Origin: Deferrisomatales bacterium
GTDB taxonomy: Bacteria; Desulfobacterota; Deferrisomatia; Deferrisomatales; JARGFW01
Length of the DNA stretch: 64,000 nucleotides
Assembly (NCBI GenBank): GCA_029211085.1
Contig: JARGFW010000003.1
Location: forward strand, 15,938-79,937
Reading direction: 5' to 3'
Positions 2,304-29,960 of the stretch are shown piece by piece (position 1 is the stretch's first letter; the number at the start of each line of letters is the position of its first letter). The notes beneath the pieces were generated by a model that saw only the letters and a program-made list of their open reading frames with translations, was not told the DNA's origin and did not search any database. Both the position numbers and the translations under genes were made by a program.

Positions 2304-2511
2304 TCAGCGGCCGCGGCTCCGCAATGACACGTCGACGCCGGGAAACGAGCCCCTTCTGTCCAATAGAGCACAGCCGTGCTGACTATTCTGCAGAAACTCG
2401 GCAACCCTCTCCGTTTTGCCTCGATTCCCGGGCCCGCAACCAGGCACGCCTCTTGCTCTACCCTTGCCCGAAGTACCGAACGCCCCCGTTCACCGAAGGG
2501 TACGTGTCACG

Positions 2512-4890
2512 ATGGCCCACACCCTGCGACGTTGGTTCGATGTGTATCAAGGCGAGGCGCGTCTGTTTCTCCTCTCGGCCCTGGTGCTGTTTTTCGTCCG
2601 CAGCTCCGGGGTTCTGTTCGGCAACTACGCGGAGACGGCATTTCTGAAGCGGTTCGGGATCGAGTACCTCCCGATCCTCATCGTGGTGAACTCCCTGTGC
2701 ACCTTCGTGGTGATGGGGTTCTTCGGGAGGCTGATGGCCCGGGTGCCGGCCGGCAACCTGCTCCGGCGCGCCCTCATCGGCTGCGGCGTCGTGGTGGGTA
2801 CCCTGCGGCTGGCGGTCCCGCTGGGACTCGATCTCCTGTATCCGGTGCTGTACGTGCTGCGCACCCAGTTCGACCTGTTGCTCACGTTCCTGTTTTGGAA
2901 CCTGGCCAACGAGCGGTTCTCTACCCGTCAATCCAAGCGCCTGTTTCCCCTGATCACTGCCGGCGGGATCGTGGGGGGGATTCTAGGCAGCTTCGCCACC
3001 CCACTGGTGGCACGCATGACCTCGGTGGACAACTTCATGTGGCTCTATGGGATCCTGGTCCTCACCGGAGCGACGTTCACCCGGAGTCTGGCCCAGGAGG
3101 AAAGACCCCCGTCGCCGCAGCACGCCGAGCCGGCGGAACCGTCGGGGCGTTCCTCCCTGTTCCAGGAGATCCGCAGGGCCACCCCCGTGCTGCGGGAATC
3201 CTCCCTGGCCCGTTCTCTGGTGCTGATGACCCTGCTGCCGAACATCGTGATACCGCTCTTGAACTACCAGTTCAGCTTTGCGGTGGACATGAACTACGGC
3301 TCCGAAGCGGCCATGCTGGGGTTCTACAGCACCTTCCGGGGTGTCCAGTACATTCTCGCCCTGGTGATCAGCCTGTTCGCCGGGCGCTTGTATGCCCGCT
3401 TCGGGATTCCCACGTCCCTGCTGTTCCATCCACTCAACTACCTGTTCGTGTTCGCCGGGTTCCTGTTCCAGTTCGATATCTTCACCGCGGTGTACGCCGG
3501 CATCTCCGTGGGCGTGTTGCGGATGTCCGTGCACAACCCGGCCCGAACCGCTTTGTTCGGGCTCTTCCAGGAGCGGGAACGGGTGCTCCTGCGCGTGTTG
3601 CTCCGGAGCACGGTGGTGCGTGTCGGCCTCCTCTTGGGTTCCCTCCTCGTGCTGGTTTGCCAGTCCGGTTATTTCGCCTGGTGCCGCTCGGCCCTCCACC
3701 CCCAAAACCTCTCCCCGTTCGGGATGTTCTTCGCCGGGCTATGGGTCTGGGTGACGCTGCGACTCCGGCGGAAGTACCCCGCCATCCTGCTCCGGTCGAT
3801 CGGACACGAGCCCCCGGCCGCAGTCGCGGCGGGAGCCCTGGTGAGCCATGGCGTGCGGCTTCCGGCCGACGTTCTCTCCCGGTGCCGAGAACGGGTGGAC
3901 CGCTGCTACCGGAGCCTTTTCGCGGCACGGGATCTGCGGCGGGTTTCTCCCCCGAGCCCGCACCGCGAGCTACTCGCGCGGCACCTGGAGGAAGCGGCAA
4001 AGCAGGACGCGCTGGAGACCCTCTCTGCGGCCGCTCAAGCGGATTCGAGCGGCCAACTGGCGACGGTCCGGCGTGCCCTCGACTCCGGCTCCTCCCGTCG
4101 GCGATCCAACGCCCTGGAAACCCTGGACCACCTCCTCGACCGCTCCCTGGCCCGACCGTTGCTCGCGTTGCTCGATGACCTGGCACCGGGCGACCGGCTG
4201 GCTGCCGGCGCTCGGTACCTGAAGGACCGACGACCGGCGCGATCGTCGGCGGCGGACCTGATCGGCGGGTTCCTGCGCAGCCCGGACCGGGTGACGCAGT
4301 TGCTCGCGCTCCATCTCGCGCAGCACGGCGGAGCACCCTCGACCCATGCGACCGACCTGCTGCGGTTGGCCGACTCGTCCACCTCCCACGTTCGGGATCT
4401 GGCCGCCGCCATGGCTCACGGAACCCATGACAGCGGCGCGGTTTCGAACGGGCCGGCGGTTGTCACCCCAAACCTGGTCGACGCCATCCTGCTGCTGCAC
4501 AGCCTGCCCGCCATGGCCGGCGTGCCCGTGCGGGACCTGGCTGAGTTGGTGTCCTCGGGAGGCTTCGTGGAGGCGGATGCGGGGCGGGAGATCGCCCTGG
4601 ACGGCGCTCCGTTTCAAGGCATCTGTCTGGTGCTCGCGGGTGCCCTGTCGGTCGAGGGTGATGCCGTTGGCGGAGGACTGGAGTCTGGAGGGGCACTGCT
4701 CCTCGGTCCGGGAGATGCGTTCGGACCGGCGCTCCCCAACGACCCGTGCAGCCGGGGCTTGTCGGGGCGGGTGGTGGAAAACATCCGCCTGTTCCTCGTC
4801 CCCAGGGACCGACCGGCCCCGCTGGACGCGATCGCGGCGGCAAGTCGCTTCAGGGCGCCCTGCTCTCCCGCGCCAGCATGGTCTCGATGA
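2512..4890 (+). CDS. TLC/AAA-family (ATP:ADP-antiporter-like) polytopic transporter fused to HEAT-like repeats and a degenerate C-terminal cNMP-binding-like domain (paralogue 1)
   Basis: It lies in ORF 2416..4890, and I place the start at ATG 2512 (MAHTLRRWFDVYQGE). The N-terminal half is collinear with the 15453..18734 protein (FFVRSSGVLFGNYAETAFLKRFGIEYLP / LFWNLANERFSTRQSKRLFPLITAGG). The middle has HEAT-like helical repeats. The C-terminus looks like a beta-barrel but lacks a clean FGE...R(S/T)A phosphate-binding cassette. Confidence 0.7.
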   Translation: MAHTLRRWFDVYQGEARLFLLSALVLFFVRSSGVLFGNYAETAFLKRFGIEYLPILIVVNSLCTFVVMGFFGRLMARVPAGNLLRRALIGCGVVVGTLRLAVPLGLDLLYPVLYVLRTQFDLLLTFLFWNLANERFSTRQSKRLFPLITAGGIVGGILGSFATPLVARMTSVDNFMWLYGILVLTGATFTRSLAQEERPPSPQHAEPAEPSGRSSLFQEIRRATPVLRESSLARSLVLMTLLPNIVIPLLNYQFSFAVDMNYGSEAAMLGFYSTFRGVQYILALVISLFAGRLYARFGIPTSLLFHPLNYLFVFAGFLFQFDIFTAVYAGISVGVLRMSVHNPARTALFGLFQERERVLLRVLLRSTVVRVGLLLGSLLVLVCQSGYFAWCRSALHPQNLSPFGMFFAGLWVWVTLRLRRKYPAILLRSIGHEPPAAVAAGALVSHGVRLPADVLSRCRERVDRCYRSLFAARDLRRVSPPSPHRELLARHLEEAAKQDALETLSAAAQADSSGQLATVRRALDSGSSRRRSNALETLDHLLDRSLARPLLALLDDLAPGDRLAAGARYLKDRRPARSSAADLIGGFLRSPDRVTQLLALHLAQHGGAPSTHATDLLRLADSSTSHVRDLAAAMAHGTHDSGAVSNGPAVVTPNLVDAILLLHSLPAMAGVPVRDLAELVSSGGFVEADAGREIALDGAPFQGICLVLAGALSVEGDAVGGGLESGGALLLGPGDAFGPALPNDPCSRGLSGRVVENIRLFLVPRDRPAPLDAIAAASRFRAPCSPAPAWSR

Positions 4891-8876: not shown

Positions 8877-9880
8877 TCTTGAGCCCTCGCAAAGCCGCGC
8901 TTCTCGGCCACCTTGAGTTCGATGAAATCGACGATCTTCTCTTCCAGCTTCACTTTGTCCAGGCGATTGATGCGCGGCACGCCGCCGGGACTGAGGCAGT
9001 TGATCTCGATGAGCTTGTCCCCGATGATATCGATGCCCACGAAGTACAGCCCATCGCGCACCAGACGCTCCTTGATCACCTCACAGATATGGCGTTGGGC
9101 CGGCGTCAGTGTGTGCTTCAGCGCCCGGCCCCCCGCGTGGATGTTGGTGCGGAAATCACCCACTGCCGGGACCCGGCGCATGGCGCCCAGCACCTCGCCG
9201 TTGAGCAGCAGGACACGCACGTCTCCCTCACTCAGGCTGGTCTCGAGGTACTCCTGCACCATGATCGGTTCCCGCCGCGCATACTCCCGGGAGGAATGGA
9301 CGTAGAAGTGGATCAGGGAGTTCAGATTGAGCTTGTCCTGCATGCCCACCTTGATGACCCCTTCCCCCCCGAACCGGGAGATGGGCTTGATGATCATGGA
9401 GCCCCCGAACTCCTCGATCACCCTGCGCAGTCGGTTGGGGTCCCTGGACAAGTGGGTTTCCGGAATGATACTGGGAAAGTTCAGGGCGTAGAGCTTGGTG
9501 TGGGCGAGCAGTTGCCCGTGGGTCGAGTTGAGGATGAACACCCGGTCTTCGAGCGGCGACAGAATTTCCAAGGCATGGCGAACGATCGGCGGGTTCTTGC
9601 GCAGGAAGATCGCGTCGATCTCGCTCAAGGGCTCGAAAATTCGCTCCTCGCGCTTCAAGCCCCGGATCAAGGTCCGCCAGTACTGCTTCATCGACAGATC
9701 TTGGGGAGCCGATACATCCCGCATTCGTGCAACAATGCGATTGCCCCGCACATAGATGTCGTGGGGCTCGAAGAAATACACCGAGTGCCGGCGCTGGTTG
9801 CACTCGTACATGATGTGGCTGGTGGTCTCGTGGACTGGAGCGATGGACTCAAGGGGGTCCATCAGGAATGCTATTCTCAT
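8873..9880 (-). CDS. Glutathione-synthetase-like (GshB-type) ATP-grasp ligase
   Basis: This 335-aa protein starts at ATG 9880. It is collinear by eye with E. coli GshB: MDP...; IFLRKNPP; IIKP..RFGGEGV; GDVRVLLLNGE; NIHAGGR; GLYFVGIDIIGDKLIEINCLSP. Its GC content is visibly lower (about 57% in the first 120 nt) than that of its neighbours. Confidence 0.8.
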   Translation of the reverse strand: MRIAFLMDPLESIAPVHETTSHIMYECNQRRHSVYFFEPHDIYVRGNRIVARMRDVSAPQDLSMKQYWRTLIRGLKREERIFEPLSEIDAIFLRKNPPIVRHALEILSPLEDRVFILNSTHGQLLAHTKLYALNFPSIIPETHLSRDPNRLRRVIEEFGGSMIIKPISRFGGEGVIKVGMQDKLNLNSLIHFYVHSSREYARREPIMVQEYLETSLSEGDVRVLLLNGEVLGAMRRVPAVGDFRTNIHAGGRALKHTLTPAQRHICEVIKERLVRDGLYFVGIDIIGDKLIEINCLSPGGVPRINRLDKVKLEEKIVDFIELKVAEKRGFARAQE

Positions 9881-10183
9881 GATTGCACCGGCTTTCTTCT
9901 TCCGTGGCCAGCGAGAACACCGCTAATCATGCGCTAGTTTTTCTTCCTCCACCTGCTGGGTCCAATCGTTTACCATGGTTCTTAGATTCCCTATCTACCA
10001 GGGTGCATCACCTCCGGGAAGAAAAACCCTCCAAATGGTTTCTCTGCCCCCCGTAAAAGCATCCAAAAATTTGTGTTCAAGGGGAAGGATGACCGCTGTC
10101 CTGCCGAAGGGCCGTCCCTTTGCCACGGCCGATCTCACTACTACACTTACTCTAGCGCGCGCCACCTCAGGAGCCACCCCCGG

Positions 10184-11788
10184 ATGAGTCCGTCCACCCT
10201 GCGTCACGCATTGGCCATCGCAGCACTGCTGCTCTTGGCCCCCCCCGTGCAGGCACGGACAAAGACCCCGGCCGATCTGCTGCTGTTGGCTGCGGATCTC
10301 AGCTCGATGATCACCCTGGACCCCGCGGCCGTGGCGGAAAGCCTCACCAGCGGGTTCCTGCGCAACACCTGCGACACGCTGATGGACCTCGACGAAGAGG
10401 ATGCTTCGCGCGTAGTACCGGGGGTCGCCGAGCGGTGGAGCGTTTCGGAGGATCTGAGCACCTACACCTTCACCCTCCGGGACGGGCTGGTGTTCCCTTC
10501 CGGCAATCCGGTCACCGCCCGGGACTTCGCCTGGTCAATGCGCAGAAACGTGGAGCTCAACCTGGCCAGCGCGAAGCGGCTCCGCGACTGGGGGATCGAC
10601 GCCAGCAATATCGACCAGGTGGTGACCGTGGTCGATGATCGCACCCTGCGGTTGACGCCGCCGCGGCGTTACGCCCCCTCGCTGTTCCTGTTCGCCCTCA
10701 CCGACTACCGGGTGGCCCCCGCCCTCGACTCCGTCCTGGTGCAGGAGAAGGAGGTCAGCGGCGACCACGGCAACCGCTGGCTGTCACGCAACACCGCCTG
10801 CTACGGGCCGTTCCGGGTCAAGACCTGGCGCCCCCAGGAGGTGCTGGTACTGGAACGCAATCCGGACTGGTACAAGGACAACCCCATCCGCAAGGTCCTC
10901 GTGCGCCACATCTCCGAACCCGGCTCCCAACGCCTGATGCTGGAGCGCGGCGACATCGACATGGGGGTCAACATCGACCCCGCAGACTACGACGAACTGG
11001 AAAACAACCCCGACACGTACCTGACGAAGACGCCGGGGCTGCGGATGATCTACATGGCCTTCAACACGCTGGACCCGCGGTTTCAGGACCCTCGGGTGAT
11101 CCAGGCCTTCCGCCACATGATCGACTACGACACGCTGAGCAACACCGTGTTGAAGAACGCGGCCGAGGTGCGACAGAGTCCGGTGCCCAGCGCGATGTTC
11201 GGCGCCCTGCCGCGGGACTTCCGGCCCTACGCGTTCGACCTGGAGAAAGCCCGGCAGTTGCTCCGCGATGCAGGGCACGCAGACGGCCTGGTGGTGGAAC
11301 TGATGACCCAGAGTTCCTACCCGTACTACGACATCGCCCAGCACATCCAGGCGAACGCAGCCGCGATCGGCGTGGAGGTCCGTATCGCCTCCACCATCGG
11401 CAAGCACCTCTACACGAGTCTGCGGGCGCGCAAATACGAGATCTCCCTGTCCGGGTACGCGTTCAACTACCCCGACGCCAACAATGTGATGCTCAGCCAC
11501 GGATACAACCCCAGCGGGTCCGACACGGACAACACCGTCTCGGTGGCGTGGCGCTCCTCATGGTTCCCGGAGCCGTGGTTCAACGAGGCCATCCTGGCCG
11601 CCCAGACCGCGGCCGACCCGGACCGGCGCCGGAGCATCTACGAGGATCTGCAGCGCTACCACGTGGAGCACTCACCACTGATCTACCTGTTCGAGCGAAT
11701 CGATGTCCGGGCCCTGAGCAGGTCGGTGCGGAGCGTGAAGTGCAACGCGGCTGGCATATGTTTCTCCTCGGTGGTGAAAGAGCAATGA
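10184..11788 (+). CDS. ABC transporter substrate-binding protein, family 5 (peptide/nickel, DppA/OppA-like)
   Basis: It lies in ORF 10073..11788, starting at ATG 10184, which is preceded by AGGAG. It has a signal peptide (MSPSTLRHALAIAALLLLAPPVQA). Length and composition are typical of family-5 substrate-binding proteins. Confidence 0.85.
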   Translation: MSPSTLRHALAIAALLLLAPPVQARTKTPADLLLLAADLSSMITLDPAAVAESLTSGFLRNTCDTLMDLDEEDASRVVPGVAERWSVSEDLSTYTFTLRDGLVFPSGNPVTARDFAWSMRRNVELNLASAKRLRDWGIDASNIDQVVTVVDDRTLRLTPPRRYAPSLFLFALTDYRVAPALDSVLVQEKEVSGDHGNRWLSRNTACYGPFRVKTWRPQEVLVLERNPDWYKDNPIRKVLVRHISEPGSQRLMLERGDIDMGVNIDPADYDELENNPDTYLTKTPGLRMIYMAFNTLDPRFQDPRVIQAFRHMIDYDTLSNTVLKNAAEVRQSPVPSAMFGALPRDFRPYAFDLEKARQLLRDAGHADGLVVELMTQSSYPYYDIAQHIQANAAAIGVEVRIASTIGKHLYTSLRARKYEISLSGYAFNYPDANNVMLSHGYNPSGSDTDNTVSVAWRSSWFPEPWFNEAILAAQTAADPDRRRSIYEDLQRYHVEHSPLIYLFERIDVRALSRSVRSVKCNAAGICFSSVVKEQ

Positions 11789-12855
11789 ACATGGCACAGA
11801 CCACCCAGCAGGGGACAGACCCGCACCGCGGGGGAGCCACGCAGTGGGGCTCTCGGGCCCGGCGGCTGGCCCAGCTGGTGCTGACCATCGGGCTCACCCT
11901 GCTCGGTCTGCTAGCGGTGACCTTCTTCATCGGCCGGTTGATGCCCATCGACCCGGTGGTCGCCATCATCGGCGAGCAGGCAGACCAGGCGGCGTATCAG
12001 ACGGTGTATCACCAGCTCGGGCTGGACAAGCCGCTGCCGGTGCAGTTCTTCATCTACGCCCGCAGCATCTTCAGCGGCGACTTCGGCTTCTCCCTCACCA
12101 CCGGCAATCCGGTGGCCGAAGACCTTTGGCGGGTCTGGCCCGCGACCATGGAATTGGCCACCCTGGCGCTGGTGCTGGGGGTGCTGGCGGGGGTGCCGCT
12201 GGGGATCATCGCCGCCATCTGCCAGAACTCCGTGTGGGACCACCTGGTCCGGCTGTTCAGCCTGATCGGCCACTCGATCCCGAATTTCTGGCTCGGGCTG
12301 ATGGCCCTGGTGGTGTTCTACGCCAAGCTGGGCTGGATCGGGGGGGCAGGCCGCACCTCGATGCAGTTCATCGACGCGCTGGATCCGGTGACGGGATCGA
12401 TTCTGCTGGACTCGCTGTTGGCCCGCAGGTGGGACATGCTCGCCGACGCCCTGCGACACGTGATCATGCCCGCCCTGATCCTCGCCAGCGGCTCGATGGC
12501 GTTCCTCAGCCGCATGACCCGCAGTTTCATGCTCGAGCAGTTGAACCAGGAGTACATCGTCACCGCCAAGCTGAAGGGCCTGGGCACGGCCGGTCTGGTC
12601 GCCCACGCCATGCGCAACATCGGCGTGCAGTTGGTCACCATCGTGGTGCTTTCCTACGGCGGGCTGCTCGACGGAGCGGTGCTGACCGAGACGGTCTTTG
12701 CCTGGCCCGGCTTCGGCAGGTACATGACCACAGGACTGATGAACGGCGACATGAACGTGACCCTGGCCTGCGTGTTCCTCGTGGGCACGATCTTCATCAC
12801 CATGAATCTGTGCGCAGACGCACTCTACCGCATACTCGACCCGAGGACCCGCTGA
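11785..12855 (+). CDS. ABC transporter permease (DppB/OppB-like)
   Basis: The start at ATG 11785 overlaps the stop of the binding-protein gene (ATGA). Typical DppB blocks are present: RLMPIDPV, MTRSFMLEQLNQEYIVTAKLKGL. Confidence 0.9.
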   Translation: MNMAQTTQQGTDPHRGGATQWGSRARRLAQLVLTIGLTLLGLLAVTFFIGRLMPIDPVVAIIGEQADQAAYQTVYHQLGLDKPLPVQFFIYARSIFSGDFGFSLTTGNPVAEDLWRVWPATMELATLALVLGVLAGVPLGIIAAICQNSVWDHLVRLFSLIGHSIPNFWLGLMALVVFYAKLGWIGGAGRTSMQFIDALDPVTGSILLDSLLARRWDMLADALRHVIMPALILASGSMAFLSRMTRSFMLEQLNQEYIVTAKLKGLGTAGLVAHAMRNIGVQLVTIVVLSYGGLLDGAVLTETVFAWPGFGRYMTTGLMNGDMNVTLACVFLVGTIFITMNLCADALYRILDPRTR

Positions 12856-13757
12856 TGATCGGGGTAAGGCAGTGGCTACGGGCCGCCGAGGCCGCTTCAC
12901 CGACCCAGGCCCTGGCCCAAAGGGTCTACTTCGGCTGGCTCGAGTTCAAGTCGCACCGACTCGCCATGGTGGGGCTCTCGGTGCTCGCCGCACTGGTGCT
13001 GATGGCCGCGTTTGCCCCCTGGATCGCCACCCACGACCCACTGGCGCAGGACCTAATGTTCCGCCTGGCCGGACCCAGCAGGGAACACTGGCTGGGCACC
13101 GACGAACTCGGCCGGGACCTGTTCAGTCGCATCGTCTACGGCTCTCGGACCACCCTGTACATCATGACCGTGGTCGCCTCCATGATCGGCCCCGCCGGCC
13201 TGTTGATCGGCACCGTGGCCGGGTTCCTGGGGGGCCGGGTGGACGCCCTGCTGATGCGCATCACCGACGTGTTTCTCGCCTTCCCCGGGCTGGTCTTGGC
13301 CCTGGCTTTTGTCGCCGTACTCGGCCCCGGCCTGGAAAACGCGTTGATCGCCATCGCGCTGACCGGGTGGCCCGGCATCGCACGCCTGGCCCGGGCGGAA
13401 ACCCTCACCCTGCGCTCCCGGGACTTCATCCACGTGATCAGACTGCAGGGGGGGTCACAGCTACGGATCATCCTGCGCCACATCATCCCCCTGTGCCTGC
13501 CGTCGGTGATCGTGCGCCTTACCCTGGGCATGTCGGGCATCATCCTCACGGCCGCCGGCCTGGGGTTCCTGGGTCTGGGTGCACGGCCCCCCGCGCCCGA
13601 GTGGGGATCCATGCTTTCCACCGGGCGGCGGTTCATGCTCGACCACTGGTGGCTCGCCGCGATACCGGGCACGGCGATCCTGCTGGTGAGCCTCGCCTGC
13701 AACCTGCTTGGCGACGGGCTGCGGGATGTCCTGGACCCAAGGAGCAAGACCGGATGA
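12855..13757 (+). CDS. ABC transporter permease (DppC/OppC-like)
   Basis: The start at ATG 12855 shares one nt with the upstream TGA. It carries the block HWLGTDELGRDLFSRIVYGSR and several transmembrane segments. Confidence 0.9.
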   Translation: MIGVRQWLRAAEAASPTQALAQRVYFGWLEFKSHRLAMVGLSVLAALVLMAAFAPWIATHDPLAQDLMFRLAGPSREHWLGTDELGRDLFSRIVYGSRTTLYIMTVVASMIGPAGLLIGTVAGFLGGRVDALLMRITDVFLAFPGLVLALAFVAVLGPGLENALIAIALTGWPGIARLARAETLTLRSRDFIHVIRLQGGSQLRIILRHIIPLCLPSVIVRLTLGMSGIILTAAGLGFLGLGARPPAPEWGSMLSTGRRFMLDHWWLAAIPGTAILLVSLACNLLGDGLRDVLDPRSKTG

Positions 13758-14623
13758 ACCACACCACCCCCCCCGCCGACCCCATTCTCAAGGTGGACAA
13801 CCTGTCGGTCGGCTACGCCTCCCATCACGGAACGGTGCACGCCGTGCGGGACGTTTCGTTCCAGATGGGTGCGGAAAAGGTGGGCATCGTCGGCGAGTCG
13901 GGTTCGGGCAAGTCCACCCTGGGCAGGGCCCTGCTGCGCATTCTGCCGCGCAGCGCCACCCTGCAGGGGAACATCTGGTTTCACGGCACCGACCTGGCGC
14001 GGCTGACCGAAAAGCAACTGCGCGCCTACCGGGGTGCCCGACTGTCGATGGTCCTGCAGGACCCCAAGTACTCGCTGAATCCGTTGATGCGGGTAGGCGA
14101 ACAGATCGCCGAAGCCTACCGCCTGCATTCCGACGCCAGCCGAGAACAGGCCCGGGAGCGGGCCATGTCGATCCTCGAGGCGGTACAGATCAGGAACCCC
14201 GCTCGGGTCTACCGCTCCTACCCCCACGAGGTCTCCGGCGGCATGGGGCAACGAGTGATGATCGCCATGATGCTGGTCGCGGAGCCCGAGTTGGTGGTGG
14301 CCGACGAGATCACCTCCGCCCTCGACGCGACGGTGAGCATGCAGGTGCTGGCCATCCTCGACGATCTGGTCCGGGAAATGGGCTTGGGCCTGGTGTTCAT
14401 CAGCCACGATCTGGAACTCGTCGCGACGTTCTGCGAGCGCATCCTGGTCATGTACGCCGGGCGCATCGTCGAGGAGTGTCGCGCCGGGGAACTCGACCAG
14501 GCCCGGCACCCGTACACCCGCGGGCTGCTCGGGTCGGTTCCGCGCATCGACCGGCCGAGCCGCCGCCTGGCGGTGCTCGAACGCTGTCCCACCTGGGCCG
14601 AGCCCACACCGGGTGCCCCGTGA
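13754..14623 (+). CDS. ABC transporter ATP-binding protein (DppD/OppD-like)
   Basis: The start at ATG 13754 overlaps the upstream TGA (ATGA). It has Walker A GESGSGKST, the signature VSGGMGQRV, and Walker B LVVADEITSALD. Confidence 0.9.
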   Translation: MNHTTPPADPILKVDNLSVGYASHHGTVHAVRDVSFQMGAEKVGIVGESGSGKSTLGRALLRILPRSATLQGNIWFHGTDLARLTEKQLRAYRGARLSMVLQDPKYSLNPLMRVGEQIAEAYRLHSDASREQARERAMSILEAVQIRNPARVYRSYPHEVSGGMGQRVMIAMMLVAEPELVVADEITSALDATVSMQVLAILDDLVREMGLGLVFISHDLELVATFCERILVMYAGRIVEECRAGELDQARHPYTRGLLGSVPRIDRPSRRLAVLERCPTWAEPTPGAP

Positions 14624-15417
14624 CACCCGTGATCGAGGCAAACGGCCTGAGCGTGGTTTTCGGCAAGGGTGCGGCGGCCCACCGGGTGCTGGACTCGGTG
14701 TCCTTCAGGGTAGGCCGCAACGAGGTGTTCGGCCTGGTCGGGGAGTCCGGCTGCGGCAAGTCTACCCTGCTCAACTGCCTCAGCGGGCTGCAGCGCAACT
14801 GGGAGGGAGAGCTCCGCATCGACGGCGCCCCCCTGGCCCGCAGGCGCAGCAAGGCGTGTTTCCGCCGTACCCAGATGGTCTTCCAGGATCCCTATGACTC
14901 GCTGCACCCGCGACACACCGTCAACTCGATCCTGCGCGAGCCGCTCTCCATCCACCGCCTGGGCGACGTGGACGCGCGCATTCGCGGCGCGCTGAGCGAA
15001 GTCGGGTTGGGACCCGAGTTTCGTTTTCGCTACCCCCATCAGCTCTCCGGCGGCCAACGCCAGCGCGTGGCCATCGCCCGCGCCCTGATCCTGGACCCCG
15101 AGATCCTACTGCTGGACGAGCCCACCTCGGCCCTGGATGTTTCCGTGCAGGCAGAGATCCTCAACCTGCTCCTGGACATTCGGGAGAAGGGCCGCATCAC
15201 CTACGTGCTGGTCAGCCACAACCTGGGCGTGGTGGCCCACATGTGCAACCGGATCGCGGTCCTGCACGGCGGAGTCCTGGTCGAGGAACTGGTCCCCGAC
15301 CAACTGCGGGAGCACACCCCGCAACACCCCTACACCCGTCGACTCCTCGACGCCAACCTCGGCTACGACCGCGGCAAGGCCCACAGGATGCTGCAAGGGG
15401 CGGAGTCCGGTGGGTAG
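14620..15417 (+). CDS. ABC transporter ATP-binding protein (DppF/OppF-like)
   Basis: The start at GTG 14620 overlaps the upstream TGA (GTGA). It has Walker A GESGCGKST, the signature LSGGQRQRVAIARAL, and Walker B LLLDEPTSALD. Confidence 0.9.
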   Translation: MTPVIEANGLSVVFGKGAAAHRVLDSVSFRVGRNEVFGLVGESGCGKSTLLNCLSGLQRNWEGELRIDGAPLARRRSKACFRRTQMVFQDPYDSLHPRHTVNSILREPLSIHRLGDVDARIRGALSEVGLGPEFRFRYPHQLSGGQRQRVAIARALILDPEILLLDEPTSALDVSVQAEILNLLLDIREKGRITYVLVSHNLGVVAHMCNRIAVLHGGVLVEELVPDQLREHTPQHPYTRRLLDANLGYDRGKAHRMLQGAESGG

Positions 15418-15452
15418 ACCACCCGGCGCCGGGAACCCTGGGGAGTCCCCCC

Positions 15453-18400
15453 GTGCGTAAGCGGCTCCTGGGCTTGCTGAACCTTACCGAGAACGAGCTC
15501 GCCCTGTTCCTGTGGACCGCTGCCCTGCTGTTTTTCGTCAGGAGTTCGGGCATCGTCCTCAACAACTTCGCCGAGACGGTGTTCCTGCAGCGCTTCGGCG
15601 TGGAGTTCCTGCCCTACGTCAACATGGGCAACGCGGCGGCCACGTTCCTGTTGATGGGCTGGATGAGCGGGCTCCTCGGGCGCTTCTCCGCCGCACAGCT
15701 GCTCGAGAAAATGTTCTTTTTCTGCGGCATCTCGGTGGTGTTCTTGCGCCTCCTCATTCCCCTCGGCCTGACCTTCGTCTATCCGGTGTTCTTCATCCTC
15801 AAGGCCCAGTACGAGGTCCTGCTTGCCCTGTTGTTCTGGAATCTCGCCAATGACCTGTTCGACACCCGGCAGTCGAAACGCATCTTCCCCCTGGTCACGG
15901 CGGGGGGGGTGGTCGGGCAGATTCTCGGCAGCTTTCTCACGCCAGCGGCCGCGCGACTTCTCTCCCTGGACAACCTCGTCTATTTCTACCTGGCCATCGT
16001 GGTCGCGGGGGCCCTGACGACACTGGCGATGCGGCGGAAGCACCCATCCTCCGCGTTCATCGGGGAGAAGAAAGAGAGCAACGACAAAATTTCCATACTG
16101 GATGAAGTTCGAAACATCATCCCTATAATAAAAGAGTCTCACCTACTGAAGATCCTCATCGCGTTGACATTCATTCCCAACGTTCTCATACCCATACTGA
16201 ATTACCAATTCAATTTCGTTGTCGCGGACCGCTTTGCCTCTGAAAGTGGTATGTTGGATTTCCTGAGCAATTTCAGAGGTTATCTAAACATCGTCAGCCT
16301 ATTGATATTGCTTTTCGTCGGAAAGTTATACGGAAGATTCGGTCTACCGATCGCTTTGATGTTCCACCCAATCAACTACCTTCTTATCTTCGCCTCCCTG
16401 CTGCTCCGCTTCGACATCATCACGGCTTCATACGCGCGCCTGACAGCCAACATCGTCCGCACGACGATCAATGCGCCAGCGCTCGCCGTAGTCACCGGGA
16501 TGTTCCCGGAACGCTACCGGAATCAAGTGCGCCCGTTCCTGCGCGGGACGGTCGTGCGCGTCGGGATCGTGGGCAGCTCGGCCGTCATCCTGGCATCTGC
16601 CCCCTTGTTCCACCCCCGCTACCTGTCGCTGGTGGCCCTGCCATTTTGCCTCACGTGGATTGCCGCCTGTGTGTCCCTGAAGCGCAACTACGCGGCTCTG
16701 CTGCTGGGCATCGTGCGGGATGGCACCCTGGAGCTGAACTCCATGGAGGAGGATCGGGTCGCCGAGTATTTTCAGGACTCCCGGGTAAAAGACACCCTCG
16801 CCCAGAACCTGGCGCAGGCGAGCGAAGATACCAAGGTCTGGCATGCGGACCTGCTGCGCCGGGTGGACGCGGCGCGCGCCAGTATCCTGATCGCGGCAGT
16901 CCTGAAACGGGAGGACTCGGAGCAGACGTGCACCCGGCTCATCCATCTACTGGACTCGGACCCGGACGGCTCGGTGGTGGAGAAGCTCAAGACCCTGGTG
17001 GACCTCTCGCGCACCCGGCAGACCCGCGCGCTGCTCACCGCGTTGCGCCGCTTCGACCCAGCCAGTTCCCGAGAGGTCTGCGCGCACATCGAGACCCTGG
17101 AACCGCCCCTGTCGATCCGCGCGCACACCGTTGCGGATCTGTACGCAACCGATCCGCAGGCCTACGGCCGCACCGTAGACGCCTGGCTCCACTCTTCCCA
17201 GCGCCGGGAGCGGGCCGCCGGGGCCGTGGCTGCCGGCCTGATCGGCGCGGACTACGGCGACACCCTGCGCGGCATGCTCGACCGCGAGCAGGACCCTCGG
17301 GTCACGGCCAAACTTCTCCAGGCACTGCAGCAGATAGGGATGAGCGGGTTGAAACCCCTCGCCGAGCGGTTTCTCGATCACCCGAGCCCGGCGGTGCGCT
17401 TCTTCGCTCTGCAGGGGTACGGAGTGGGGGGAAGGAGCGACTTGCGCAAGGTCGTCTATATGTTCGCCGACCCGTCCAGCAGGGTGGCCGAACGGGCTCG
17501 GCAGAAGGTCAAGAGCGCTCCCAACCTCGACGCCCAGGATCTGTTCGCCCTGCTGGACCTGCCCCACAAGAAAGTGCGCAAAGGAATTCTCGCGCTACTG
17601 AAGTCGATCAACGTGGGCGAGATCGAGGTCATCCGCTTCGGCATGAAACAGGCGCGCACCGCGTATCAACGTCTGGCCGAGGCCAACGCCCTGGACCAGT
17701 TGCCAGATAGCCTGGAGCGCAACCTGCTCCAACGCCACCTGCTGACCCTCAAGGACGAAGCGGCGGAGACCCTGATCCGCGTCCTGCAGAGCCAGAACCG
17801 AGAGGTTGGGATGCGAACCCTGGCCAGGGGGCTGTTCACCGGGGACGAGCGCAGGAAGGCAAACAGCGTGGAGGCGATTTCACAACTCCTCGCCAAGCCG
17901 CTGCGCGAGGTGCTGGTGCCCATCCTGGACAGCACCGACAACGACGCGAAGCTGGCGGCAGGAAGGCGGCACTTCTCCCTGAAATACTACCGCCAAGAGA
18001 CCGACGCGTTGGTGTCGACGCTGTCGGTCAGCGAGGACTGCGTGACCTCCGCCCTCGCCTATTTCCTGTCGATGAAGGAGCACATCCCCATCGACCTGTC
18101 GGCGGCCGTGGATCTGGAACGCTTCGAGTCGGAACCCATCTGCAAGATCGCCCACTTCCTGTATCAGTCGGGCGCCGGCCCGAACACGGCAACGGAGTCC
18201 GCCATGAAGAACGCCCTGGGCCTTCCAGAAAAGATCTTCTTGCTGCAGAACGTATACGTCTTCCAAGGCATGTCCGTCGGCGACCTGGCGGCGGTCGCCG
18301 CAGTCGGCGAGGAGGTAGCGCTGCAGGCCGGACAGCGCGTCTTCGCCGAAGGCGAGTTCGCCGACAAGATGTTCATGGTGGCCACAGGCGCGGTGTCGCT

Positions 18401-18734
18401 GACGAAGCAGGTGGAGAACGGGGAGGCGGTTGAAGTGCGGAACCTCGGGAAAGGCGATCATTTCGGCGAGATCGCCCTATTCAACGACGACCCGCGCCTG
18501 GTCACCGCCACGGCGAGCACCGACACCCACCTACTGGTCTTGCACAAGGACGAACTGACCGAACTGATCCGTGAGTTTCCCCAGATCGGGCTGCACATCT
18601 GCCGCGCGTTCAGCAAGCAACTGCGCCAGGTTCTGAACCTGGTTGCCGAGCGCCACGGGCCCCGGGGGCTCTCCGACCTCATAAGCAAGGCCGGCGCCTT
18701 GTGTGGGTCACCCTCCACGGGCGACTTGAGCTGA
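15453..18734 (+). CDS. TLC/AAA-family transporter fused to HEAT-like repeats and a C-terminal cyclic-nucleotide-binding domain (paralogue 2)
   Basis: It lies in ORF 15243..18734. I place the start at GTG 15453 (VRKRLLGLL), with GGGGAG upstream, only 36 nt after the ABC ATPase gene. The N-terminal half is collinear with paralogue 1. HEAT-like repeats are present ([15 protein letters not shown]..., [14 protein letters not shown]). The C-terminus has a near-canonical cNMP cassette ([23 protein letters not shown]). Confidence 0.75.
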
Positions 18735-25195: not shown

Positions 25196-25570
25196 TCAAC
25201 CAGCGGCGAACACCACCTTGTTCAACACCTCGAGAACCTTCTCCTCCTCGAACGGCTTGAGAATGTAGTGTTTGGCTCCGGCCTTGGCGCACTCCACGAT
25301 CTTGTCCTTACCGGACATGGAGCTGACCATGATCACGGTGGCGTCGGGGTCGATCTTCTTCAGCAATACCAGGGTCTGAATGCCCCCCATCTGCGGCATC
25401 ACCAGATCCAGGGTGACGAAGTCGGGGCGGAACTCCTTGTACTTCTTCACCCCCTCCAGGCCGTTGGCGGCGGTGGCCACCACCTCACAGCCGTGCTTTT
25501 CCAGAATCTTCGACAACTCTTTCTGGATGTAGGGCGAGTCGTCCACCACCATTGCCCGTTTGGCCATCAT
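25196..25570 (-). CDS. Single-domain CheY-like response regulator
   Basis: The start is ATG 25570, with GAGGAGG upstream. Receiver residues are intact: VVDDS, phospho-acceptor TLDLVMP, VSS, KPF. Confidence 0.9.
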   Translation of the reverse strand: MMAKRAMVVDDSPYIQKELSKILEKHGCEVVATAANGLEGVKKYKEFRPDFVTLDLVMPQMGGIQTLVLLKKIDPDATVIMVSSMSGKDKIVECAKAGAKHYILKPFEEEKVLEVLNKVVFAAG

Positions 25571-25616: not shown

Positions 25617-26099
25617 TCACGGGGTCTCCCGGGTCAGCGACACCACGACCGTGATCTCCCCCACGGTGGTCTCCAGGGGAATCTGCACGCTCTCTACTCC
25701 CCCATCGAAGCCGAAGCTCACCTCGGGCCCCAGAACCACGGTGGGGGGGGTGATCCCCTCCTGGATGCCCAGGTCGTATAGCAACCCGGTGGCGTTGCCC
25801 ACAATGGTGTTCGCCACCTCGGCCATGATCGCCCGCACATCGTCCTCACCCACCTCTTCGGGCGGGGCCTTGACGATCATCGCCGAAAGGGCCTCGGCCA
25901 CCGGCCGCGGGGCGGTGAAGATCACCGAGCCCGAGAGCCGCCCCTTGAGCCCGATGATGATGCTCAGGTGGTGGTCCACCGTGCTGCCCACACTCTGGCC
26001 CAGGCGGGACACCTTGCCCACCTTCACCTCCGTGCCCGCCATCTTTTGCAGCACCTGCACCGCGGGCACCAGGAACGCGTTGACGTGCTCTGCCTTCAT
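25617..26099 (-). CDS. CheX/CheC-like chemotaxis phosphatase family protein
   Basis: It lies in ORF 25617..26462, starting at ATG 26099 (MKAEHVNAFLVPAV), with GGAAGGAG upstream. It is about 160 aa with a CheX-like layout (..AEVANTIVGNA..). The upstream part of the ORF is Arg/Gly/Pro-rich shadow. Confidence 0.7.
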   Translation of the reverse strand: MKAEHVNAFLVPAVQVLQKMAGTEVKVGKVSRLGQSVGSTVDHHLSIIIGLKGRLSGSVIFTAPRPVAEALSAMIVKAPPEEVGEDDVRAIMAEVANTIVGNATGLLYDLGIQEGITPPTVVLGPEVSFGFDGGVESVQIPLETTVGEITVVVSLTRETP

Positions 26100-26128: not shown

Positions 26129-27847
26129 CTACTCCACCGCCTTGGTCACCCGGACGACTTCCTCCAGGGTGGTCTGCCCCGCCACCGCCTTGCGCAGCCC
26201 GTCGAAGCGCAGGTCGCGGAATCCCTTGCCGTACGCCACCCGGCGCAGCTGCGAGGTGCTCGCCTTCTCGATGATCAGCTCGCGAATCTCCTCGTCCACT
26301 TTGAGCACCTCGTGGATACCGGTCCGGCCCCGGTAGCCCGAACCGCTGCAGTAGCCGCACCCCTTGCCGCGGTAGAACGTCACCTGGCCGGCGATGTCCT
26401 GCACTCCGGCCTCGGCGATCTCGGCGGGCAGGGGCGTGTGGGGCGCCTTGCACTGGGGGCACACCCGACGCAGCAGGCGCTGGGCGAGGATGCCCAACAG
26501 GGTCGGCGCCAGCAGGAACGGCGCCACCCCCATCTCCATCAGTCGGGTGATCGAGCTGGGGGCGTCGTTGGTGTGCAGGGTGGACAGCACCAGGTGGCCG
26601 GTGAGTGCCGCCTCGGCGGCAATGGAGCCGGTCTCCGGGTCGCGGATCTCGCCCACCATGATGATGTCCGGGTCCTGGCGCAGAAACGCGCGCAAGGCAC
26701 CGGCGAACGTCAACCCCCGCTTCACGTTGACCGCCACCTGGTTGATCAGGGGGATCTGGTACTCCACCGGGTCCTCGACGGTGACGATGTTCCTCTCGAT
26801 CGAGTTGATGGAGTTGAGCGCCGCGTACAGGGTGGTTGACTTGCCGCTGCCCGTGGGGCCGGTGACCAGCACGATGCCGTTGGGCTGGCGCAGCAGGGAC
26901 TCGAACACCTCCAGGTTGTATTTGGAGAACCCCAGGTCGGTCAGCTCCACCCGCACGCTGCTGCGGTCGAGGATGCGCATGACCACCTTCTCGCCGTAGA
27001 CCACGGGCAGCACGCTGACGCGGAACTCCAGTTCCCGGTCCCCCATCTTGAGCTGTATGCGCCCGTCCTGGGGCCGCTGGCGCTCGGAGATGTCCAACGC
27101 CGAGAGGATCTTCACCCGGCTCGTCACCGCCGCCGAGAGTTGCATGGAGAACGCGAAGCGCTTCTGCATCACCCCATCGATGCGGAAGCGCACCAGCAGG
27201 TGGTCTTCGCCGGGCTCGATGTGGATGTCGCTGGCCCCCTCCCGCACCGCCAATTTGAGGATCTTGTCCACCATCTTGACGATGGGGGCCTCCTCACCGG
27301 CGGCCCGCAGGCTCTCGATGTCGGTCTTGCGCCCTCCCGAATCCACGTCCAGGGCGCCGAGGGTCACCAGGTCGTCGGAGGCCTCCTCTTCGTCGCCCCC
27401 CCCGTAATGGGAGGCGATGCTCTGCAGCACCTGGGTCTCGCTGACCAGCACCGGCTGCACCGGCCGTTTGAGCAGGCCGCTGACCACGTCCACTCCGTCG
27501 ATGCTGGTGGGATCGGAGACCGCCAGGGTGATCTCGTCGCCGATTGCGAACAGGGGCAGCAGTTTGTAGCGGCGGCAGATCTCCTCGGGCACCTGTGCCA
27601 GCAGATCTTCCTGGACCTCCACCTCCTCCAGATCCATCACCGCCAGGTTGAACTGGCGAGCCAGCACCCGCAGGCAGTCCTTCTCGTTGATGTAGCCGTG
27701 GCGCACCAGGTACTTGCCCACGGGCAGGCTGGTCAGGCCCTTGCGGTCCCGCTCGGTCAGCGCCTGCTCCAGTTCCTCCTCACTGAGCACCTGCTCCTCG
27801 ACCATCATCGACCCGAGGCGCCGCTCGACCTTGGTTATCTTGGCCAC
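26129..27847 (-). CDS. GspE/PilB/MshE-family secretion ATPase with T2SSE_N/MshEN-like N-terminal domain
   Basis: This 572-aa protein has a GTG start at 27847. It has Walker A GPTGSGKSTT, Asp/His boxes, and a tetra-Cys motif (CPQCK...CGYCSGSG). The N-terminus (RLGSMMVEEQVLSEEELEQAL...VGKYLVRHGYINEKDCLRVLARQ) resembles the MshEN c-di-GMP motif. Confidence 0.9.
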   Translation of the reverse strand: MAKITKVERRLGSMMVEEQVLSEEELEQALTERDRKGLTSLPVGKYLVRHGYINEKDCLRVLARQFNLAVMDLEEVEVQEDLLAQVPEEICRRYKLLPLFAIGDEITLAVSDPTSIDGVDVVSGLLKRPVQPVLVSETQVLQSIASHYGGGDEEEASDDLVTLGALDVDSGGRKTDIESLRAAGEEAPIVKMVDKILKLAVREGASDIHIEPGEDHLLVRFRIDGVMQKRFAFSMQLSAAVTSRVKILSALDISERQRPQDGRIQLKMGDRELEFRVSVLPVVYGEKVVMRILDRSSVRVELTDLGFSKYNLEVFESLLRQPNGIVLVTGPTGSGKSTTLYAALNSINSIERNIVTVEDPVEYQIPLINQVAVNVKRGLTFAGALRAFLRQDPDIIMVGEIRDPETGSIAAEAALTGHLVLSTLHTNDAPSSITRLMEMGVAPFLLAPTLLGILAQRLLRRVCPQCKAPHTPLPAEIAEAGVQDIAGQVTFYRGKGCGYCSGSGYRGRTGIHEVLKVDEEIRELIIEKASTSQLRRVAYGKGFRDLRFDGLRKAVAGQTTLEEVVRVTKAVE

Positions 27848-27850
27848 GGG

Positions 27851-28204
27851 TCAGTCTCCGAACAGGGAGTCGATGTCATCCTGCGACACCTTCACGTCCG
27901 CGTCCTGCTGCGCCACCTCCTCGGTCTCCCGGGCCGCTTCCAGCAGGTCGGCCATGCCGGCCATTGCGGGGCCGGCGTCCGGCGCCGGGGCGGGAACGGC
28001 GGGGGCGACCGGCCGAGCGGCGGACGGGCGGAGTTCCGGCCGGGGGGGAGCGTCGCCCAGGGGGCTGCCGCAACCGCCGCAGTAGTGGTCTGCCAGCCCG
28101 TTGCGGAAGCCACATCGGGGGCAGAACCGCACCAGCGGGCTGCCGCAGGCACCGCAGTAGTTGCGGCCGTCGGCACAGGGGTGTTTGCAGTGGGGACAGT
28201 TCAT
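27851..28204 (-). CDS. Double zinc-ribbon protein with Pro/Ala-rich linker and acidic C-terminal SQDDIDSLF peptide
   Basis: This 117-aa protein starts at ATG 28204, overlapping the upstream TGA (ATGA). Zinc-ribbon Cys pairs are CPHC..CGAC and CPRC..CGGC. The C-terminus is ...VKVSQDDIDSLFGD. Confidence 0.75.
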   Translation of the reverse strand: MNCPHCKHPCADGRNYCGACGSPLVRFCPRCGFRNGLADHYCGGCGSPLGDAPPRPELRPSAARPVAPAVPAPAPDAGPAMAGMADLLEAARETEEVAQQDADVKVSQDDIDSLFGD

Positions 28205-29166
28205 CGCTCGCTCACCATCACGCGGTTGCGCCCGGCCCGCTTCGCCCGGTACAGGGCGTCGTCCGCCAGGCGGATCAGATCGTCACCGCTCTCCACGGCG
28301 GGGTTGGGACAAGCCGAGACACCGATGCTCACCGTCATACTCACCTCGTGGCCGTCCACCAGCAGGGTCTTGTCTTCCACCCCGAGGCGCAGGCGGTGGG
28401 CAAACTCCGCGGCGCCTTCCAGGTCGGTCTCGGGTAACAGCATGCAGAACTCCTCGCCCCCGTAGCGGGCCGCGATGTCGGTGGTGCGCACCGCGTCGTG
28501 GATCAGCGCGCCCAGGCCCCGCAGCGCCTGGTCCCCCACCTGGTGGCCGAAGGTATCGTTGAGCCGCTTGAAGTGGTCGATGTCGAGCATCACCATGCCC
28601 AGGGGCGAGCCGTAGCGGTCGGTGCGTTCGAACTCCGTGCCCAGGGCCGCCATGAAGTAGCGGCGGTTGAACAGTTTGGTGAGGGCGTCGGTGGAGGAGA
28701 GCTCCTGGAGCAACTCGTTGGAGCGCCGCAGTTCGTCCTGCAGGGCCTTGATCTTGAGCTGCACCTTGATGCGGGCCAGCAGTTCCCCGGCATCGAACGG
28801 CTTGGTGACGTAGTCCGAGGCCCCCAGCTCCAGACCGCGGATCTTGGTCTCCACATCGGTCTTGCCGGTGACCAAGATCACCGGGATGTCCCGCAGTTCC
28901 TCCCGGGCGCGGATCAAGGCGAGGAACTTCAACCCGTCCACTCCGGGCATCACCAGGTCGCACAGGATCAGGTCCGGTGCTGCCTCCAGTACCCGTTTGT
29001 ACGCCTCGACGCCGTTTTCCGCTTCCCGGCAGGTGCCGAACACCCCCAGCCGCCCGGCCAGGCGCCGCACCTCCTGGCGCACGCTGACCGCGTCATCGAC
29101 GATGAGCAGGGAGAAGTCGCGCCGCCCCAGCAGCCCGAGGCGGTCGGCCGCCTCGTCGTCTCTCAC
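28201..29166 (-). CDS. Response regulator-diguanylate cyclase (REC-GGDEF)
   Basis: It lies in ORF 28201..30051. I place the start at GTG 29166, overlapping the upstream TGA (GTGA). The REC domain has [19 protein letters not shown]. The GGDEF active site GGEEF is present, with an RxxD I-site (RTTD) 5 residues upstream. Confidence 0.9.
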
Positions 29167-29960
29167 CGGTGCGGTGCCGGCAGCCACAGGGGAAGTTGCG
29201 TCGTGGTCCACGGTTCGGTTCCTTCCAGCGTTTCCACGGCTGTGCCCGGCGGCACCTCCAACCGCAGCGCAGCGGCGGGCAGGGTGTCGGTCGGCGTGAC
29301 CTGGCGAAACTCCAAGCGGTAGCCGGGCGCTCCGTAGCCCGGCTGCACGGCGATGGCCCCGGGGAACGGCTGCCCGTCCACCGCCATGTACTCTCCCAGT
29401 TCCACTTCCAACTCGGCGACCCCCGCCCGGCTGAACACGGCCCGCCGGGGCACCTGGGCACCCGCGGCGAACTCCACCTCCTCGAGCCAGTCCCCGCGGC
29501 CGGATAGCTGCAACACTTCCGCGCCGTCTGCCAGCCGCCGGGCCTCCCGGGCCTTCCCCATCACCGGCAGCCGGCCCCGGGTCAGGTCCAACAGCCACGG
29601 CCCCCAGGTCCCCGCGGGATCCACCAACACCCGGCGCTGCTCGGGCAGGTAGATACGGCAAGCGCCCCCGACGGTGCACGCCACCGACAGCAGCGGCCGG
29701 GAAAACGCCCCGCTCACCGCGTCCAGACGCAGCCCCTGGCCAACCACAGCGGTGGCCCCGAACACCGCGCTGCCGCGCCCCTCGAGCCGCAACCGCCCCT
29801 GCACTCGGGCCCCCGCAGGAGCCCCGTTGTACTCGGACAGGACGGCGGCGAGCCGTGCCGGCGGAATCGGCGCCCCGTCCCCGGCGCGCTCCAGGCCTCG
29901 CGGCGCACACCCCGGCCCGACCAGCACCAACGCCAACAGCAGGCCCGCCCCCAGCCTCAC
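29163..29960 (-). CDS. Exported protein / possible lipoprotein of unknown function
   Basis: This 265-aa protein has a GTG start at 29960 that overlaps the upstream TGA (GTGA). The N-terminus is MRLGAGLLLALVLVGPGC, a hydrophobic signal with a weak lipobox. I recognise no catalytic motif. Confidence 0.6.
   Translation of the reverse strand: MRLGAGLLLALVLVGPGCAPRGLERAGDGAPIPPARLAAVLSEYNGAPAGARVQGRLRLEGRGSAVFGATAVVGQGLRLDAVSGAFSRPLLSVACTVGGACRIYLPEQRRVLVDPAGTWGPWLLDLTRGRLPVMGKAREARRLADGAEVLQLSGRGDWLEEVEFAAGAQVPRRAVFSRAGVAELEVELGEYMAVDGQPFPGAIAVQPGYGAPGYRLEFRQVTPTDTLPAAALRLEVPPGTAVETLEGTEPWTTTQLPLWLPAPHR

Follow-up and report, generated by a model that had tools for sequence, protein, structure and literature searches.

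A zinc-ribbon protein with a FliM-like C-terminal tail as a candidate adaptor between CheY and a PilB/GspE-family ATPase

A small gene in a 64,000-nucleotide stretch of DNA from a Deferrisomatales bacterium (contig JARGFW010000003.1, positions 15,938 to 79,937; the whole stretch is referred to as the window) encodes a protein, hereafter the DZR protein, that carries a double zinc ribbon at the N-terminus and, at the C-terminus, a tail resembling the CheY-docking peptides of FliM and CheZ. We propose that this tail is a docking site for CheY and that the protein would act as a tethered adaptor linking CheY to the PilB/GspE-family ATPase encoded next to it, a reading to which we assign a probability of about 55%. 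The initial annotation of this DNA had named the protein as a candidate target or adaptor of phosphorylated CheY (CheY-P), and this proposal is supported by the conservation of the tail and by a gene for a single-domain CheY that lies in one operon with the DZR gene in about 24 independent loci of several phyla; the taxa showing this synteny are Thermodesulfobacteriota, Nitrospirota, Ignavibacteriales and those represented in soil metagenomes.

The protein of 117 amino acids is translated from a minus-strand open reading frame (ORF) at 27851-28204, which begins with an ATG and includes its stop codon within these coordinates. The gene and the parts of its product are as follows, with the basis of each assignment, including the structure predicted by AlphaFold2 (AF2) and its confidence score pLDDT (predicted local distance difference test).

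27851..28204, minus strand: DZR gene, double zinc ribbon plus FliM_N/CheZ_C-like C-terminal tail (ORF, translation, Pfam DZR, 53 close and more than 120 distant homologues)
28067..28198, minus strand: double zinc ribbon, residues 3-46 (PF12773, invariant columns, AF2)
27968..28066, minus strand: Pro/Ala-rich linker, residues 47-79 (variable length and sequence, AF2)
27902..27967, minus strand: predicted helix, residues 80-101 (AF2 pLDDT 65-70, column statistics, tail segments)
27854..27889, minus strand: docking-like C-terminal peptide VSQDDIDSLFGD, residues 106-117 (invariant residues, family logo, AF2, pattern match)

Two N-terminal CxxC...CxxC ribbons followed by a Pro/Ala-rich linker had been described for this protein of 117 residues, and both the translation of the ORF and the Pfam match agree with that description. 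PF12773 (DZR) covers residues 3-46 with 36.3 bits against a cut-off of 27.3 (E = 6e-9), in which the Cys pairs are C3xxC6...C17xxC20 and C28xxC31...C42xxC45, and the domain itself is an ordinary member of Pfam DZR. The positions of the ribbon conserved in the family alignments are the 8 Cys together with N10, R14, F33, N35, D39 and GGCG. When an alignment of 53 sequences was given to AF2 as input, the ribbon was modelled with pLDDT of 92-94, the linker with 46-53 and without secondary structure (the disordered stretch being residues 51-78), and a terminal helix was predicted at residues 108-115; the linker columns are also gap-rich and poorly conserved. The tail itself is KVSQDDIDSLFGD, the C-terminus reads ...EEVAQQDADVKVSQDDIDSLFGD, and the C-terminal peptide that we regard as the candidate CheY ligand is DADVKVSQDDIDSLFGD. 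This layout, with the folded part as anchor, a tether that is flexible and, at the end, an amphipathic helix that is invariant, is that of a docking adaptor. A Foldseek search with the AF2 model retrieved only generic RanBP2/NZF-type ribbons (all E > 0.1) and gave no functional lead, and scans of the protein against NCBIfam and Pfam returned zinc-ribbon families only, with no match to CheZ, CheF or PilZ; NCBIfam holds no model for the family of DZR plus tail.

Within this large family, no part is better conserved than the tail. A word-seeded search yielded 53 homologues (34-78% identity, all of 104-137 amino acids), in which V106, Q108, D110, D112, L114 and F115 are invariant along with the eight Cys and the linker varies freely in sequence and length. 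When 1.84 billion cluster representatives were searched exhaustively with a profile, 16,033 matched at E <= 1e-3, many of them larger multi-ribbon DZR proteins, and 1,371 at E <= 1e-10. More than 120 of the best 150 matches are small proteins (100-160 amino acids) aligned over their full length, and nearly all of these end with [VI][ST]Q[DE][DE][LI]DxLFG, placed 1-5 residues from the C-terminus; a few small family members bear an extra charged tail of 10-12 residues beyond the motif. In an alignment of 131 sequences, the tail columns hold Q in 131/131, D in 124/131, L in 115/131 and F in 128/131, a conservation equal to that of the zinc ligands. That these four residues have been kept over such evolutionary distances argues for a specific ligand. 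Conservation of the C-terminal motif among homologues, put forward in the initial annotation as a check on its proposal, is thus found among the 53 homologues, where the motif is invariant, and it persists in the more than 120 distant representatives. A 42-column profile of the tail searched against a set of 5.8 billion proteins yielded nothing but truncated gene calls belonging to this family, and the named cluster members are all called 'hypothetical protein'.

Some 20 residues before the tail, the family also shows a second motif, [LIVY][ST]xx[ED][LI]x[ED]L[LF] (for instance, ISQAELAELL, YSQDEIQQLL and LSAAELASLL). Since this motif is FliM_N-like as well, many members carry two tandem EIDAL-like helices; the window protein retains only MADLL of it, within the helix at residues 80-101.

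The C-terminal peptide of CheZ binds CheY, and both this peptide and the N-terminal peptide of FliM bind the alpha4-beta5-alpha5 face of CheY-P. The docking site for CheY-P on FliM is the EIDAL(L) motif (PMC9126983, PMC6946799). The Escherichia coli FliM N-terminus was confirmed as MGDSILSQAEIDALLNG, including ILSQAEIDALL, and the E. coli CheZ C-terminus as ...VVASQDQVDDLLDSLGF (...ASQDQVDDLLDSLGF), including ASQDQVDDLL. The DZR tail aligns position by position with both, so that the similarity to the FliM N-terminus and the CheZ C-terminus first noticed in the initial annotation held against the actual E. coli peptides. The pattern [LIVM][ST]Qx[DE][ILV][DN]x[LIM][LIMF] matches a single site when the window is translated in six frames, and that site is the DZR tail, with about 2.6e-4 matches expected from composition, a figure that is indicative only as the pattern was drawn up post hoc.

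The register shared with the FliM/FliY peptide is hydrophobic, S, Q, x, acidic, I/L, D, x, L, hydrophobic, and in both cases the peptide is protein-terminal on a flexible segment; the DZR tail is predicted to be helical and is encoded beside a chemotaxis-type CheY. On the other hand, the DZR tail is C-terminal rather than N-terminal and has LFG in place of LL, its carrier is a zinc-ribbon protein of 100-160 amino acids without a CheC-like or SPOA domain, and its gene partner is a PilB/GspE-family ATPase instead of the flagellar C-ring. The CheZ peptide ASQDQVDDLL is linker-tethered and C-terminal in the same register as the DZR tail, and a CheY-P phosphatase, CheX, is co-operonic with the DZR gene. 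However, the DZR protein has neither the helical bundle nor the catalytic Asp/Gln of CheZ and no CheZ match in Pfam or NCBIfam, and the phosphatase of the DZR operons is a separate protein, which is missing from some of them. Taken together, we are inclined to think that the tail acts as FliM_N and CheZ_C do, a resemblance in action for which homology cannot be shown.

Other classes of short motifs were rejected for the tail: beta-clamp-binding QL[SD]LF differs in the spacing from Q to L to LF, the SSB C-terminal DDDIPF must end in F and lacks both a Q and a helix pattern, and the FtsZ C-terminal peptide and the NWETF pentapeptide of methyl-accepting chemotaxis proteins (MCPs) mismatch in spacing or composition.

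In the window, the operon on the minus strand runs in the order REC-GGDEF, DZR, MshEN-T2SSE ATPase, CheX and CheY. The stop codon of REC-GGDEF overlaps the start codon of DZR (ATGA), and 3 nt lie between the DZR stop and the ATPase start. This Pfam-annotated gene order agrees with the earlier placement of the gene between a diguanylate cyclase and an ATPase, with CheX and CheY in the same run. The neighbours are the following.

28201..29190 (5' limit approximate), minus strand: REC-GGDEF diguanylate cyclase (Pfam Response_reg and GGDEF, PleD-family match)
26129..27847, minus strand: PilB/GspE-family ATPase with an MshEN N-terminal domain (PF00437 and PF05157)
25617..26084, minus strand: CheX-like CheY-P phosphatase (PF13690, 58.8 bits; NF041094 match below cut-off)
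25196..25570, minus strand: single-domain CheY of 124 amino acids (PF00072)

The window CheY is, judged from its sequence, a bona fide chemotaxis-type CheY. Its best PDB matches are the chemotaxis CheYs of Pyrococcus horikoshii (6er7) and Thermotoga maritima (4iga/1tmy), at about 50% identity by eye, and it keeps D12, D13, D57, S87, K109, Y106, I95, A103, K92 and K122 (E. coli numbering). Among 21 DZR-linked CheYs, S88, K94, I/V95, C98, H105, Y/F106 and L108 are near-invariant.

The synteny around the DZR gene was found to vary in its members, with CheY as the most constant neighbour, followed by the ATPase and then by CheX. Wherever the contig extends far enough, the DZR gene is almost always followed directly by that of a PilB/GspE-family ATPase, and CheX and a CheA-like Hpt-HATPase kinase are often encoded in the operon too. 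The order REC-GGDEF, DZR, ATPase, CheX, CheY of the window type occurs in 5/5 loci. The close relatives, which are metagenome-assembled genomes (MAGs) of Deltaproteobacteria, Thermodesulfobacteriota and Deferrisomatales, have the same layout as the window (mutS, TPR, an unassigned gene for about 265-279 amino acids, REC-GGDEF, DZR, ATPase, CheX, CheY), and the identities in these loci are 80-86% for CheY, 75% for the ATPase, 51-61% for CheX and 47-55% for DZR, with the tail unchanged. The operon is reduced to DZR, ATPase and CheY in a Nitrospirota MAG, and the order is ATPase, CheY, DZR, ATPase in an Ignavibacteriales MAG. In the Ignavibacteriales locus L011, PilB-like ATPases at 17-1720 and 2481-4175 flank cheY-dzr, and the one directly 3' of dzr has a degenerate His box (TVLSSD versus TLHTND) and a variant Walker A (GPSAGGKT); by these motifs it may be a non-catalytic paralogue.

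A soil subfamily was collected by scanning metagenome contigs with a 16-sequence alignment as the seed, giving 23 loci, of which 18 unique ones with enough upstream sequence were used for upstream counts. CheY is directly upstream of the DZR gene in 15/18, the C-terminus of a CheA-type kinase in 2/18, and a receiver gene lies 2 kb away in 1/18; the genes 3' of the ATPase encode CheX and a kinase that contains Hpt and HATPase_c domains. In locus L038 (388-kb contig, 9603-15445), cheY, dzr, the ATPase gene, cheX and the Hpt-HATPase kinase gene make up one operon in which stops overlap starts. CheX is co-operonic also in L026, L029, L038 and L035/L020, and weakly in L016. The kinase of the soil subfamily (L038; also L016, L029, L022 and L023) has 670-950 amino acids with Hpt and HATPase_c; no CheW-like (P5) domain was detectable in it and no MCP or CheW gene was seen nearby, so from its domains it looks like a receptor-independent CheA-like kinase. 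In the loci L035 (549-2787) and L020, cheY, dzr and cheX are joined by the gene for a FIST-domain sensor, no ATPase is encoded within 1.5 kb, and the DZR proteins keep the full tail (GVTQDDLDRLFG), indicating that the ATPase is not an obligatory neighbour and that CheY is the most constant partner. One apparent natural CheY-DZR fusion (P0065) was rejected, as its receiver domain is truncated and it resembles a read-through across a frameshift; there was no true fusion among the matches.

Several observations weigh against a CheY-docking tail that leads to the ATPase. A profile of 146 tails searched against PDB gave nothing significant; residues 5-14 of Salmonella FliM were listed in the right register, only as the sixth and last match with E = 5.2, behind chance matches such as the Hsp70 lid helix. 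The F and G of LFG are near-invariant in the tail, where FliM and CheZ have LL. In E. coli, K119 of CheY forms a salt bridge with D12 of FliM; position 119 is Val in the linked CheYs. Their alpha4-beta5 region is modestly more conserved than the rest between subfamilies (0.51 versus 0.36 elsewhere), and since a similar bias is seen against E. coli CheY, this gives weak support only. A scan of large genes of the window detected no structural genes of a pilus, a secretion system or a flagellum that the ATPase might power. Finally, the ATPase is nearly as regular a neighbour as CheY and could be the true partner of the tail.

The strongest of the alternatives, although we consider it unlikely, is that the conserved tail and/or the helix upstream of it would bind the PilB-like ATPase, for instance at its N-terminal MshEN/N1 domain, as a cofactor comparable to PilZ/FimX for PilB. 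The tail would then resemble FliM_N by coincidence, and the complex would be acted on by CheY via another surface, possibly the zinc ribbon. The ATPase gene directly follows the DZR gene, often overlapping it or spaced by 3 nt, in nearly every locus with room, and both the missing significant match of the tail profile to FliM and the LFG fit this explanation as well. However, L035/L020 retain the full tail together with cheY and cheX in the absence of an ATPase gene within 1.5 kb, and the ATPase N-terminus differs strongly between subfamilies whereas the tail does not. In addition, a review of PilB cofactors names zinc only in the C-terminal zinc-coordination motif of PilB itself and no zinc-ribbon cofactor (PMC11656802). 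The L035 lineage, in which the tail occurs with CheY and CheX although an ATPase gene is not adjacent, thus favours CheY over the ATPase as the ligand of the tail.

With a still lower probability, the DZR protein would supply the docking function of a CheZ-like phosphatase split over two proteins, in which the tail captures CheY~P and presents it to CheX, which has no docking peptide of its own, and the main role would be faster signal termination instead of output. CheX is co-operonic in the window type (5/5) and in L026, L029, L038 and L035/L020, weakly in L016, and the tail is in the register of the CheZ C-terminus and likewise C-terminal on a flexible linker. Since the operons of Nitrospirota and Ignavibacteriales have no CheX, however, a role centred on CheX alone is disfavoured, and the zinc ribbon and the tight coupling to the ATPase gene would be left without explanation. 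Such a role is compatible with that of an adaptor, and the two are not mutually exclusive.

It is very improbable that the tail docks some other partner (the REC domain of the adjacent REC-GGDEF, a FlhG/MinD-type ATPase or an unrelated protein) or is merely a structural or stability element; in the window type, the start of the DZR gene lies within the end of REC-GGDEF, and the second FliM_N-like motif about 20 residues upstream (ISQAELAELL, YSQDEIQQLL) leaves room for a second partner, but REC-GGDEF is absent from the operons of Nitrospirota, Ignavibacteriales and the soil subfamily, a FlhG/MinD gene was seen in no locus, and the constancy of Q, D, L and F among widely diverged members points to a specific ligand. 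FlhG is reported to bind the same EIDAL motif of FliM/FliY (Schuhmacher and colleagues, 2015).

For the preferred reading, in which the tail docks CheY and the protein links it to the ATPase, the following mechanism can be proposed. The C-terminal helix of the DZR protein would dock on the alpha4-beta5-alpha5 face of CheY~P in the manner of the FliM N-terminus and the CheZ C-terminus, while the zinc ribbon and/or the helix at residues 80-101 would hold the adaptor on the PilB-like ATPase, as suggested by the translational coupling of their genes. Occupancy by CheY~P may then alter the activity, assembly or localisation of the ATPase, and CheX, going by its family, would reset the signal. In the lineage of the window, c-di-GMP (cyclic diguanylate) made by REC-GGDEF would be sensed by the MshE-type N-terminal motif of the ATPase, and the motor would therein integrate two phosphorylation-driven inputs.

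The genes for this second input have been kept in part of the family. The REC-GGDEF gene is retained upstream of the DZR gene in L001, L003, L008 and L009; its start codon in the window is uncertain, as the ORF runs far upstream over the neighbouring gene. Since the GGEEF active site is intact and an RxxD I-site (RTTD) lies five residues upstream, the enzyme is probably an active, product-inhibited cyclase. The window ATPase scores 458 bits for PF00437 and 630 bits for the PilB equivalog TIGR02538, which is below the cut-off of 675; its best PDB matches are the PilBs of Myxococcus xanthus and Geobacter, and Walker A (GPTGSGKST), Walker B, the His box and the tetracysteine motif are intact by eye. 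The MshE-type c-di-GMP motif NF053729 matches residues 10-65 with 41.6 bits against a cut-off of 38. The motif of MshE, RLGxx(L/V/I)(L/V/I)xxG..., is 24 residues long and occurs in tandem (PMC5013675), and compared with it, motif 1 of the window ATPase has by eye a Q at the consensus turn-Gly position. With tandem N-terminal motifs plus the core, the window ATPase has the sequence features of an MshE-type T2SSE ATPase, and c-di-GMP binding is predicted. The tandem motifs are present in the ATPases of the window type and the Nitrospirota type and absent from those of the soil subfamily, and thus c-di-GMP input appears limited to lineages like that of the window, whose operon begins with the gene for an apparently active cyclase; presence of the motif tracks a GGDEF gene in the window type only.

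The closest functional analogue is archaeal CheF, which follows the same logic in that CheY-P acts through a small, dedicated adaptor on a machine of the type-IV-filament type and not on the flagellar C-ring; CheF binds CheY in a mode unlike that of FliM_N (PMC9126983). The motor ATPase of the archaellum, ArlI/FlaI, is of the PilB/GspE family and hence of the same superfamily as the DZR-linked ATPase, and the best PDB match of the window CheY is an archaeal CheY, in line with this comparison. The DZR protein, however, has no sequence or domain relationship to CheF and its lineages are bacterial, so that the likeness is one of functional analogy only. Signalling input likewise converges on a PilB-type extension ATPase in the case of the known regulators PilZ/FimX, c-di-GMP sensing by MshEN, and the PATAN-CheY proteins PixG/PixE on cyanobacterial PilB1, and control of PilB by response regulators has precedent (PMC11656802). 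As in MshEN systems, the window ATPase has an MshE-type c-di-GMP motif and is encoded beside a diguanylate cyclase. Unlike these regulators, the DZR protein has no PilZ, EAL or PATAN domain, and neither PilZ/FimX, MshEN and the PATAN regulators nor PilG/PilH of Pil-Chp involve a zinc-ribbon adaptor or a FliM-mimic peptide, according to PMC11656802 and literature titles.

The initial annotation had called the combination undescribed, and literature and family-library searches agree with this: nothing relevant was found on DZR with PilB, on zinc ribbons with CheY and MshEN or on FliM-like peptides with type IV pili, and no publication or curated family was found that describes an arrangement of zinc ribbon, CheY-docking tail and ATPase. 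What would be new here is a CheY docking peptide on a new carrier with a new output. To our knowledge, non-flagellar chemosensory outputs are understood in molecular detail in a few systems only (Pseudomonas Pil-Chp, the cyanobacterial PATAN regulators and archaeal CheF). The wiring principle suggested by the conserved tail and gene order is simple, a FliM docking peptide transplanted onto a small zinc-ribbon protein beside a pilus/secretion-type ATPase, by which the DZR protein probably wires chemotaxis-like signalling to a pilus-type motor. If true, hundreds of 'hypothetical' proteins, from Thermodesulfobacteriota, Nitrospirota and Ignavibacteriales as well as from soil bacteria, would gain a function, a new class of CheY targets could be recognised from sequence, and there would be a case of one motor integrating phosphorylation and c-di-GMP signals. 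More tentatively, at a little less than an even chance, these operons may represent a CheY output pathway that has so far gone unrecognised and is phylogenetically widespread, in which a module of CheA-like Hpt kinase, CheY and CheX controls a PilB/GspE-family ATPase via a zinc-ribbon adaptor with one or two tethered FliM-peptide mimics; it would be the bacterial counterpart of the archaeal link from CheY through CheF to the archaellum, merged in some lineages with c-di-GMP sensing by the same ATPase.

Other genes of the window were noted in passing. Between mutS and REC-GGDEF, there are a protein of 265 amino acids without a Pfam match (29163-29960, minus strand) and a TPR protein of about 510 amino acids (29957-~31500, minus strand), and both genes hold their position in all close relatives (L001, L003, L008 and L009). 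Elsewhere, a protein of 1163 amino acids (15243-18734, plus strand) combines a membrane region like that of TLC ATP/ADP transporters with a C-terminal cyclic-nucleotide-binding domain, an architecture that looked unusual, and an MFS/TLC-like protein of 824 amino acids (2416-4890, plus strand) is encoded near it.

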